A stretch of 60,442 nt of DNA. Source: a virus. Its lineage: Duplodnaviria > Heunggongvirae > Uroviricota > Caudoviricetes. How positions within the stretch are numbered: the stretch's first letter is position 1; every line of letters starts with the position of its first letter. Location: the IMG/VR virus record IMGVR_UViG_2660238269_000009. One strand, written 5' to 3'. A program made the position numbers. Below are positions 15,001 through 18,000 of this stretch, one piece after another.

Positions 15001-18000
15001 ATCCTCCGCCATCCCGGTGACAAGGCCGAAAAGATTGGACACCGTCAGCGACGGGCGGGCACTGCTGCCCTTTCCGTTCATCTCAAAGCCGCTGCCCTCA
15101 ATCGGGTACGCCTGATATTCACGCCCCTGCCAGGTCACCGGCTCCCCTTTTTCATTCAGCTCATTGCAGAAAAAATACCGCTCACCGCCCTGCACCGTCA
15201 GGTCGATTTCCCAGAGCACCACCCGCGGTGACTGCTCTGACTTAACCGACTCGTTCAGGCTTTCTTCGTGAATATCCTGCATATATCCGCCCATAAAAAA
15301 GGGGCGCAGACGCGCCCCGAACAATAAAAGTCCAATTTAAAATAAAACCAATAAAGGTAATAACAGAAAGTTAAATCAGCACATGCCAGATGGCAATTGC
15401 TGATCGCAGTGACCAATGAAAACTGTGTTTTCATTGATACAGGCCGCCTGTAAGGGCAGACGGCCCGTATTTATTAACTTATCAGCAATAATCAGAACTG
15501 ATAAGTCATACCCACAGCAACGATATTATCTGTCGCAACACCGGCTTTCCGGGTAAATTCACTTTCATCAATCAGGTTAATTTTATAATCAACATAGGTG
15601 GACATATTCTTGTTAAAGTAATAAGTCGCACCGACATCAATATATTTAACCAGATCCTGATCGCCATGGTTCACACCACCAACCATAACATCCTGTCCGC
15701 GGGACTGAAGGTAGGCAAGGGACGGGCGCAGACCAAAATCAAACTGATACTGAACAACGGCTTCGATATTCTGAGCTTTATCCGCAACACCTTGATCACC
15801 AAAGGTCGTCATATTCTGGGTTTCAGAATACACTGCTGCCAGATACAGGTTATTGGCATCATATTTAAGACCAGTTCCCCAGAATTCAGCATGTTTACCT
15901 TTTGCCACACTACCTGAGTCAACTGCTTTTTCTCCAACCTTTTTACCTGATGCAGGATCAAGAACATCTGCAGTACCATTCAACCCCTGAACCTGCTTAT
16001 CAGTACGATCTGACTTGGTATACGCAGCGACAAAACCAAAACCATCAAACTCATAGCTGGCCGAGAAACCATACCCGTCGCCATTAGCCTTCTGAAGGTC
16101 ATCACGCTCATTTTTGCCCTGATACTGCGCCGCAAAATTCAGACCATCAACCAGTCCGAAGAAGTCTGTATTACGGTAAGTCAGGACACCGGAAGTTCGG
16201 GCCGTCATAAAGTTATCGGTCTGCGTCCAGCCATCACCACCAAACTCAGGCAGTACGTCAGTATATGATCCGACATCGTAAGCAATACCATAGTTACGTC
16301 CGTAATCAATGGTACCAACATCTGCAAATCTCAGACCTGCAAATGCCAGACGGGTTTTATTTCCCGCGGAACCTTCAGATTCCGTTTTATTACCAGAGAA
16401 CTGGTATTCCCACTGACCAAATCCGGTCAGTTGATCATTAATCTGCGTTTCGCCTTTAAAGCCGAGACGAGCATAAGTCTGGTCTCCGTCATTACCTTTA
16501 TCATCCGAGAAGTAATGCAGAGCGGTTGCACGCCCGTAAAGATCCAGTTTATTACCATCTTTATTATAAACTTCTGCTGCCTGCGCCCCCGCAGCAAACA
16601 TCACTGCCACTGCTACAGCAGAAAGTGCCACTGTCATTTTTTTCATGATTTAATCCTTATTTAAACTGAACTATTCATGCATTCAGATGTCATGAACAAA
16701 AATTAAAATATTTTAATACAAATTCTTAGTTCAATTTATATTATGTAACAAAATGTAAATGCAAGATCGATTTCGCACTTTCTGACAAGACAGATTAAAA
16801 ATAATTAACAACTAAACACTAAAGAATGATTTATAGGATAATTCTCATCTAACTACCTGCTCTATCGTGCAACTGAAATCACTGTACCGGGCGTTATCCG
16901 TAATACTCCACTCCCGGCACACCACCCTGACCGTCCGGTTATGTTTCGGGGGCTTCCACAAAAAAGCCCGGTAACCACCATGCCATGACAGAAACGCGGA
17001 CAGTGCCTCCCGCTCAGCATCCGTTGTCACCCGAAAAACCACCTGAAAGGTCTTCAGTTGCGCATTCAGTCCTGCCGGACGACGCTGCTGATAACCGTCG
17101 CCAAACTTCACCGTCATCACCGACGGTTTCTCCGTCACCTGCATCCCTTCCCGGGGACACCAGTGAAGAGTCTTAATCTCATCCACTCAGCATTCCTCCG
17201 TCACGACGCATGGATAACATCACCGCCTGTACCCGCTGGTCAATCAGTTGCACAAGGGTGCCCGCCGCTTCCGGCCCTATCTGCCCGTTAGCGCCGTCAT
17301 TCTGAATGGCGATGTGGTACACCGGGGAATACACCAGACCCGCACTGCCGTTCATACTGCCCACCGCACGCACGCCGAGTGAACCATCCGCTGCCCGGGT
17401 CAGGGGCATGATGGCTTCAGGTCCGGCCTCCCCCATCAGCCCTGCCCCTTTTGCAAAGGCAAAGTACGTGGGCGTGTCCACAATACTGTTACTGTATGCA
17501 CTCAGGTTTGCCGAGGTATAAACGCCGCCTTTTGCATTTGCCACCGCGCCACCCAGCCAGTTGCCTATACTGCCGAAAAATCCTCCTGCACCGGACATAC
17601 TGTTTGCCGCCATCTTAATGCCGTTGACAATGGCCGCATTCATAAGAACTTTTGATATTTCCTGCAGGATTGATGCAGCCCAGCTGCGCCATTCCACTTT
17701 ATTTCCGTTCAGCATCTCCGTGATGTTATTCACCATCCCTGAGATACCGTCTGTCGCAAGCTGTGCTGCCTGTGAAGCGTAATCTGATGCGCTGTCCACC
17801 CAGTTACTTAGCCCTTCCTGCAGCCCTTTCTGCCAGTCAGCACGCTGCGCATCCGATTCGGCATAAAAAGCCTCCTGGTCTTTAAGGCGTTCACTCAGAT
17901 ACTGCGCATTCTGCGCCAGCGCCTGTCTGTAAAAATCCTCACTGATATCCCCTGTCTGATACTGAGACTGCAGGTCCGCATCCTTCTGGCGGTAGCCGTC

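Follow-up and report, generated by a model that had tools for sequence, protein, structure and literature searches.

A porin moron in the tail module of a lambdoid prophage, with an IpeX-type 3' untranslated region predicted to pair with host porin messages

This study concerns a porin gene that lies, together with its own flanking sequences, between the tail genes M and L of the window, as we call the 60,442-nucleotide (nt) stretch of viral DNA analyzed here (IMG/VR record IMGVR_UViG_2660238269_000009). The window represents a complete lambdoid prophage in ompW of Escherichia coli N51 (100% match), and its late genes are on the minus strand. Judged by its sequence, the inserted DNA is a moron carrying an NmpC-lineage porin; it is located at a new site and equipped with a diverged IpeX-type 3' untranslated region (3' UTR). 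Newly found here is an unpaired block within this 3' UTR that is predicted to be antisense to the ompC leader and to the Shine-Dalgarno (SD) sequence of ompF, the complementarity to ompC being common to IpeX. The coordinates of all elements are collected in Table 1.

RESULTS

A porin of the NmpC lineage is inserted between tail genes M and L

In phage BP-4795 and in about 120 other phage records, the M stop codon and the L start codon overlap as TGATG, with no DNA between the two genes. Because M and L abut in these records, the interval that separates them in the window is an insertion; the cassette was missing from 121 phage records with abutting M and L. Alignment with the M-L junction of BP-4795 placed the 5' edge of the insertion at the M stop codon, and the L start agreed with that of BP-4795. 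While M and L have a GC content of 55 to 59%, the porin gene has 45% and its 3' UTR 41%, and the 198 nt upstream of the gene drop to 23%.

We use the term moron in the sense of Hendrix and Juhala. The cassette is additional DNA separating two genes that adjoin in related phages, it shows a drop in GC content and has its own terminator, and a promoter is implied by an OmpR box and conserved blocks, with no hexamers assigned. That this interval is a porin moron we regard as practically certain. The first-pass annotation had read it in the same way, as a complete OmpC/NmpC-family porin gene lying between M and L and preceded by an AT-rich region, and all these points were borne out by the full-length porin domain, the Pfam assignments of M and L, and the base composition. 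Like the lambda-type morons of the tail region (lom and bor), the cassette is a promoter-gene-terminator unit of lower GC content lying between genes that adjoin in relatives, and its cargo is an outer membrane protein that is presumably expressed in the lysogen. Unlike lom and bor, it is found at the M-L position, it carries a general porin, and it has an added regulatory RNA module predicted to be aimed at host genes.

The match to the Pfam Porin_1 model (PF00267) spanned positions 1 to 337 of 337 (480 bits), i.e., the full-length 16-strand barrel domain, and the NCBIfam model of the OmpC subfamily scored 507.7 bits against a cutoff of 484. The best solved relatives were OmpC, OmpK36, and PhoE (E of about 1e-131 to the solved OmpC). 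The protein harbors a Sec signal peptide and the C-terminal aromatic residue of a beta-signal, the match to the solved mature OmpC beginning at residue 24. Its signal peptide matches that of NmpC (MKKLTVAISAVA..) and not that of OmpC, with MKK(M/L)TVA in common. Among phages, the porin was 67 to 69% identical to NmpC-type porins, and every phage match was annotated as NmpC or OmpD. Among species-representative genomes, the top matches had NmpC length and 66 to 68% identity (63% in one Klebsiella locus), and they included loci of E. coli, Enterobacter, Citrobacter, and S. arizonae. The other species-representative porin loci were 55 to 61% identical, those with micF upstream (ompC type) being at 57 to 61%. 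By sequence, the porin is thus a member of the NmpC/Lc/OmpD lineage and is closer to it than to OmpC, OmpF, or PhoE.

The porin 3' UTR is highly structured

The 3' UTR of the porin gene is 209 nt long, of which 173 nt lie between the porin stop codon and the terminator stem. This length agrees with the noncoding stretch of about 170 nt described in the first-pass annotation; the two hairpins described there turned out to be three (Table 1). The fold of the whole 3' UTR had a z-score of -8.5 compared to dinucleotide shuffles. Together, the three hairpins and the terminator have 38 pairs; over 11 alleles, 99.3% of the alignment cells were paired, versus 36 to 46% when the partners were slid. Compensatory double changes were found in 8 of the 38 pairs, and none of 500 shuffles reached the covariation score. 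The G.U pairs of hairpin 1 are valid on the porin-sense strand only. More generally, several positions that alternate G.U with A-U or G-C pair on the porin-sense strand only, which points to selection acting on the RNA. Two alleles from mouse isolates (L006:6031-6202 and L010:3031-3202) are nearly identical apart from the inner segment of hairpin 3 (CAATTGCCATGCATATG), which in one is the exact reverse complement of that in the other, a flip that keeps the structure.

The 3' UTR is related to IpeX in structure and context

IpeX corresponds to the 3' UTR of nmpC/lc in DLP12 (qsr') and phage PA-2. It is reportedly made as part of the porin transcript and processed, and it lowers OmpC and OmpF. 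The 167 nt behind nmpC in DLP12 (ipeX, L007:4362-4528, minus strand) have the same layout as the cassette 3' UTR, with three hairpins and then an unpaired stretch before the terminator (z = -9.7). We built a covariance model, R1, solely from eight alleles of the M-L cassette and searched about 1 Mb with it, namely, the window, K-12 loci, 80 enterobacterial porin loci, and 32 viral contigs. R1 matched ipeX over its full length at 5/5 nmpC-type loci (L007, L011, L012, L013, and L050) with 39 to 44 bits (rough E of 1e-7 to 1e-10), while unrelated sequence scored at most 22 bits. The first-pass annotation had considered an IpeX-like small RNA (sRNA) plausible at this place, a suggestion that hung on similarity in sequence or structure, and the matches at these five loci provide it.

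The two elements also agree in their surroundings and architecture. Both lie behind a phage porin of the NmpC/OmpD lineage, on the same strand, between its stop codon and an intrinsic terminator. Both have three hairpins followed by an unpaired A/U-rich block and a GGGGCG..CGCCCC terminator, and a motif with antisense complementarity to the ompC leader, CUGUUAU..(U)ACC(C)UUUAUU, is found in both. They differ in that the hairpins of the cassette are unrelated to those of IpeX in primary sequence, the 3' UTR is 209 nt rather than 167 nt long, and the block lies 48 nt rather than 25 nt from the terminator. Furthermore, the cassette is co-oriented with the late operon at the M-L site, whereas nmpC-ipeX is located between Q and the lysis genes and is opposed to them. 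The cassette porin, 67 to 69% identical to the nmpC-type porin, is also 20 to 25 amino acids longer and has an ompC-type OmpR C1 box upstream.

Two observations speak against this relationship. First, the reverse strand of the palindromic hairpin 1 of the family itself reached 36 bits with R1, meaning that long hairpins dominate the R1 score. Second, when aligned with ipeX, as the first-pass annotation had envisaged, the cassette 3' UTR gave a clearly significant result over the terminator only, both with MAFFT and with local alignment. Elsewhere the alignments failed, blastn finding no match between the cassette 3' UTR and ipeX, and homology needed the covariance model to be recognized. Nevertheless, given the R1 matches, the context in common, the kinship of the porins, the likeness of the terminators, and the common unpaired motif, we consider it very probable that the 3' UTR belongs, as a diverged member, to the IpeX family.

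An Rfam cmscan (E up to 10) of positions 14500 to 17500 returned only noise, with neither MicF (RF00033) nor MicC (RF00121). With respect to IpeX this silence is uninformative, because Rfam has no IpeX family and returned nothing even on the authentic DLP12 ipeX locus. One further R1 match in the window (38480-38615, minus strand, 21 bits) was rejected as an ordinary intrinsic terminator between the genes of a helix-turn-helix protein and a TerB-family protein. The svsR RNA of prophage NC-SV was also discarded as a relative, being a different sRNA located inside cI.

An unpaired block of the 3' UTR is complementary to the ompC leader and the ompF SD

Behind hairpin 3 lies an A/U-rich stretch, GAUUUAAYUUUC(A)UKUUAUUACCUUYAUYG, that contains the longest invariant runs in the unpaired part of the 3' UTR (11 alleles). 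This block is essentially unpaired in both the minimum-energy and the consensus structures. In the window, its segment UUAACUUUCUGUUAU is predicted to form a 15-bp helix with 2 G.U pairs with AUAACAGAGGGUUAA of the K-12 ompC leader, over the SD. Two further segments follow, CCUUUAUU with AAUAAAGG (8 bp) and GUUUU with AAAGC (5 bp). The predicted duplex corresponds to the MicC site, extended over the SD. Its energy was -36.1 kcal/mol, compared to -20.7 ± 3.3 kcal/mol for dinucleotide shuffles (z = -4.7; reached by 0/500). The ompC message ranked first among 88 translation-start regions for the window block, and a 15-bp helix with at most 2 G.U pairs occurred in only 1 of 2174 background windows. 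Of 5371 E. coli genomes, 5368 have an ompC leader with 99% identity or more, so that the K-12 sequence can stand for that of any host.

A 13-bp helix of the same block was found on AUGAGGGUAAUAA of ompF (z = -3.0; 11/2174 background windows). In contrast to ompC and ompF, ompA showed no complementarity to the window block above background (9 bp; z = -0.1). The predicted complementarity to ompC and ompF but not to ompA matches the reported IpeX targets, OmpC and OmpF. OmpA is reportedly unaffected by IpeX.

The block differs in the alleles L003 and L004, where UUUAUUACCUUCAU is predicted to form a 14-bp helix with the ompF SD, AUGAGGGUAAUAAA (2 to 5 of 2174 background windows), and the ompC start codon would be covered by a helix of 12 bp. 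The motif recurs at the corresponding place in DLP12 IpeX: the segment AACCUUCUGUUAUAU there pairs in the prediction with AUAUAACAGAGGGUU of ompC over 15 bp (0/2174 background windows), and a second segment, CCUUUAUUU, pairs with AAAUAAAGG over 9 bp. Here too, ompC ranked 1/88, with a duplex z-score of -3.8.

With regard to the features of an Hfq-type sRNA, the sequence offers an accessible complementary seed, with helices of 12 to 15 bp on the SD or AUG, and a terminator ending in U6 that is preceded by the U-rich stretch UUUUAUUUU..UUUUAUUGUU. The promoter scan revealed no internal promoter-like site on the minus strand.

The block is reminiscent of two chromosomal sRNAs. MicF is the antisense sRNA of ompF and is encoded divergently from ompC. 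Its seed, UUAACUUUAUUUAUUACCGUCAUU, is matched by UUAACUUU.U.UUAUUACC.U(C/U)AUU in the block (14/15 in L003 and L004; local-alignment P of 0.002 to 0.02), and both are predicted to pair with the same SD segment of ompF. The cassette element differs from MicF in being the 3' UTR of a porin mRNA instead of a separate gene with a promoter of its own, in lacking the MicF hairpins, and in not matching the Rfam models, and the two may have converged on one target without being related by descent. The second sRNA, MicC, acts in antisense on ompC and is encoded divergently from ompN. Its site, AAAUAAAGGCAUAUAAC, is covered by both the window-type block and IpeX; unlike MicC, which leaves the SD uncovered, the cassette is predicted to form a duplex that extends over it. 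The likeness of GUUAU-UACCUUUAUUG..UUUUAUUUU to the MicC 5' end is marginal, being reached by 17 to 34 of 1000 shuffles. Separately, we observed that R1 recognized, in about 20 enterobacterial species, the micF gene preceding chromosomal ompC with 14 to 22 bits, via the unpaired block and the terminator (L074, L078, L079, L099, L106, and others at about 2040 to 2210 on the minus strand; L014:1794-1876 on the plus strand).

The prediction of pairing has to be set against several points. Full-length co-folding gave similar interaction energies (ddG of -17 to -19) for ompC, ompF, and the leader of the porin itself, and it separated ompA (-9 to -16) from ompC and ompF only moderately. Because of this poor discrimination among targets, we relied on block-level duplexes, ranks, and contiguous helices. 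Moreover, both pairing partners are A/U-rich, the background of 88 start regions and about 220 kb is smaller than the whole transcriptome, and published reviews state that IpeX acts without base-pairing.

The last statement and the poor discrimination of co-folding would suit a passive 3' UTR, the hairpins of which would block 3' exonucleases while the terminator shields the tail genes. On this view, the matches to ompC and ompF would be remnants, for instance of a micF-like or porin-leader sequence taken up with the porin, and they would have no effect in trans. Compensatory changes in the hairpins are equally expected for stabilizers, and pieces of the ompC-micF type have evidently been captured, as indicated by a 25/29 micF-promoter relic upstream of the porin in L003. 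On the other hand, the block holds the longest invariant unpaired runs and is the sole primary-sequence motif outside the terminator that is common with IpeX, which reportedly represses OmpC and OmpF. In addition, the two allele types differ in the block, and each keeps a helix of 12 to 15 bp on an SD or AUG of ompC or ompF. Taken together, we consider a purely passive element unlikely.

We lean slightly toward the prediction that the block acts as a MicF/MicC-like antisense RNA repressing host porins by base-pairing. As for the wider proposal that it is a genuine MicF/MicC-like seed, by which both the M-L and the nmpC/lc-ipeX cassettes would silence ompC and ompF through pairing at the SD or AUG, with alleles tuned to different host porins, we see the chances as evenly balanced. 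In such a base-pairing scheme, the window type would be directed to ompC and the L003/L004 type to ompF.

A second unpaired element is complementary to the leader of the porin itself

A second unpaired element, UUUAAAUUGGACU, is complementary to the 5' leader of the porin mRNA. The two partners lie 1.3 kb apart and would form a 13-bp helix with 2 G.U pairs just 5' of the porin SD. This helix might circularize the mRNA, mask the antisense block, or provide feedback. In an alternative reading, the unpaired region would act mainly in cis, on its own message, circularizing or protecting the mRNA, masking the block until processing, or exerting negative feedback. A helix of 8 to 13 bp is present in all four allele groups and includes a single A-U to U-A double change, 86.8% of the cells are paired (31 to 62% when slid), and the start region of the porin itself ranked 4/88. 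However, the covariation is not significant, as 264 of 500 shuffles reached it, and IpeX has no equivalent, the longest helix with the nmpC leader being 7 bp. We find a mainly cis-acting role improbable; besides, it would be compatible with action in trans by the neighboring block.

The upstream region harbors an OmpR-type box

Across eight aligned alleles, the AT-rich region upstream of the porin contains the invariant blocks GTCTTG.CA.AAAGTG, TTTACAT, AATTGAA, AAATATTTTAA, ATGACA, and AGTTC..AAGGA. One segment, CTTGCATTTACATTTTGTTACAT, is 21/23 identical to the K-12 ompC promoter region, with an exact run of 17 nt and a score reached by 0/500 shuffles. The matched ompC stretch is one that we take to be the OmpR C1 site. 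The TTTACAT..ACA core of this box is retained in all alleles. No significant similarity was found between the porin upstream region and those of nmpC, ompF, and ompN.

In L003, the upstream region (L003:4640-4845) agreed at 25/29 positions with the K-12 sequence between ompC and micF, on the side of the micF promoter (L014:1730-1759), a match reached by 0/500 shuffles. This suggests that the cassette was picked up from a chromosomal locus resembling ompC-micF.

The porin promoter is probably OmpR dependent. Two findings count against it: the match to the OmpR box is strong in the window allele and degenerate in others, and a consensus promoter scan yielded no minus-strand site of at least 9/12, so that the promoter hexamers and the transcription start were not placed. 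Since no -10 or -35 hexamers and no start were assigned, we only infer the dependence on OmpR.

A terminator and a putative substitute translation signal precede L

The intrinsic terminator was invariant in the 11 alleles, and its sequence resembles that of the ipeX terminator. It would end the porin mRNA as well as any sRNA derived from the 3' UTR. As described in the first-pass annotation, it stands immediately before L, exactly 12 nt separating the U-run from the L ATG. The motif GGGYGGA at the end of the cassette is conserved among alleles. By destroying the TGATG overlap, the insertion would uncouple M from L, a loss for which the SD-like GGCGG of AUGGGCGGAUAU would substitute.

Across the lambda late operon, Q-modified polymerase ignores terminators. 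By analogy, a terminator at this position fits a need for Q antitermination to reach L, K, I, and J, as had been proposed; a Q gene is present at 43733-44422 (minus strand). Since the late operon runs in the same direction as the cassette, strong transcription of the antisense block would also be expected late in infection. Apart from this, the window contains two annotated genes of the antiterminator Q family, the one just mentioned and another at 50282-50803 (minus strand), with an IS421 transposase gene and hokD between them. This arrangement suggests a mosaic or tandem early-late region.

The cassette is found in several diverged alleles at the same junction

The cassette was found at the same M-L junction in about 109 to 111 of 5426 complete E. 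coli genomes. Several diverged alleles exist, and the tail modules around them are of different kinds; one, from mouse isolates, is lambda-like, and another locus (L005) is a degraded prophage remnant. Alleles were 74 to 100% identical in the 3' UTR and 80 to 95% in the porin protein, with porin lengths of 364 to 387 amino acids. The porin open reading frames were intact in every locus inspected, including the degraded remnant. In 50,697 phage records the cassette was absent, and the best phage porins there were of the NmpC/OmpD type, located in the Q-lysis region and 67 to 69% identical. A protein-based scan of 185,579 species-representative genomes revealed nothing closer to the porin than 68% identity, and a pattern scan of species-representative genomes gave 0 matches. 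The 3' UTR motif was present on 32 IMG/VR contigs, which added few alleles to those from E. coli genomes.

One could argue that the cassette is silent cargo, a hitchhiking porin without any role in the lysogen or the phage. NmpC and OmpN are quiescent in laboratory strains such as K-12 for nmpC, and none of the sequenced free phages (50,697 phage records) carries the cassette. Opposed to this are the intact reading frames in all loci, L005 included, and the conservation of promoter blocks, hairpins, antisense block, and terminator in spite of porins that differ by up to 20%. We hold this view to be very improbable.

Table 1. Elements of the porin cassette and its neighboring genes in the window
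Feature	Position	Strand	Details
Tail gene M (minor tail protein)	16845-17186	minus	Pfam PF05939, 114.8 bits; RefSeq 'phage tail protein'
Porin cassette (moron)	15283-16844	minus	1562 nt; between M stop and L ATG
AT-rich upstream regulatory region	16647-16844	minus	23% GC; invariant blocks across 8 aligned alleles
OmpR C1-type box	16743-16765	minus	CTTGCATTTACATTTTGTTACAT; 21/23 identical to K-12 ompC promoter region
Porin gene	15492-16646	minus	384 amino acids; signal peptide; C-terminal ..GMTYQF; Porin_1, NCBIfam OmpC subfamily
Hairpin 1	15437-15470	minus	14 bp, -23.9 kcal/mol; 3 pairs with compensatory changes
Hairpin 2	15414-15436	minus	10 bp; 4 pairs with compensatory changes; 100% of cells paired
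Hairpin 3	15374-15405	minus	Outer 7 bp conserved; inner part variable, deleted or inverted among alleles
Conserved unpaired antisense block	15344-15374	minus	UUAACUUUCUGUUAU-UA-CCUUUAUU-G-GUUUU; predicted pairing with ompC leader and ompF SD
Second unpaired element	15329-15341	minus	UUUAAAUUGGACU; complementary to 16660-16672 in the 5' leader of the porin
Intrinsic terminator	15295-15318	minus	GGGGCGC-GUCU-GCGCCCC + U6; 7 G-C pairs, 4-nt loop, -16.4 kcal/mol
Junction with L	15283-15294	minus	AUGGGCGGAUAU; SD-like GGCGG 4 nt before L ATG
Tail gene L	14584-15282	minus	Pfam PF05100, 309 bits; first gene 3' of cassette terminator

Other features of the prophage

Downstream of J, the prophage carries further cargo. 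A Hok/Gef toxin gene lies at about 8727-8867 (minus strand), between J and the side tail fiber gene, and a gene for an adhesin-like protein with a YadA C-terminal domain is located at 4629-5873 (minus strand). An autotransporter peptidase gene of the S6 family (of the type of serine protease autotransporters of Enterobacteriaceae) at 1-3697 (minus strand) runs off the start of the window. Examined for a hint of the phage receptor, the J C terminus had uncharacterized J proteins of Shiga toxin (Stx) phages as its closest relatives; lambda and h434 were about 49% identical. Three tRNA genes (Arg, Arg, and Ile; about 41098-41349, minus strand) lie downstream of Q, proximal to the late promoter, as in Stx-type phages. 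No stx gene is annotated in the window.

DISCUSSION

We favor, with some reserve, the view that the lambdoid prophage carries in this cassette a self-contained moron for a "porin swap." In the lysogen, the porin would be transcribed from its own promoter, probably in an OmpR-dependent manner, and the stop at the terminator would keep the tail genes silent. The phage porin would be delivered to the outer membrane. Its 3' UTR, acting within the mRNA or after processing as reported for IpeX, would pair with the SD and AUG regions of ompC and ompF and lower their translation, and the host porins would be replaced by the phage porin. The likely payoffs would be the exclusion of phages and colicins that depend on OmpC or OmpF, as well as altered permeability and antigenicity. 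During lytic growth, Q-modified polymerase would pass the terminator, and L would be translated from the SD-like GGCGG supplied by the cassette in place of the M-L coupling.

Porins determine the entry of phages, colicins, and antibiotics into E. coli as well as its immune visibility, and the cassette is present in about 2% of the complete E. coli genomes, many of them from Shiga toxin-producing E. coli and clinical isolates. If our model is true, a module that supplies a new porin while switching off those of the host would be a compact device of lysogenic conversion. It would also add a case of a horizontally acquired 3' UTR that mimics sRNAs of the core genome (MicF and MicC). Base-pairing would reverse a view held for twenty years, namely, that IpeX acts without complementarity, and the complementarity common with IpeX, with its 15-bp helix, makes this old question of the IpeX mechanism directly testable.

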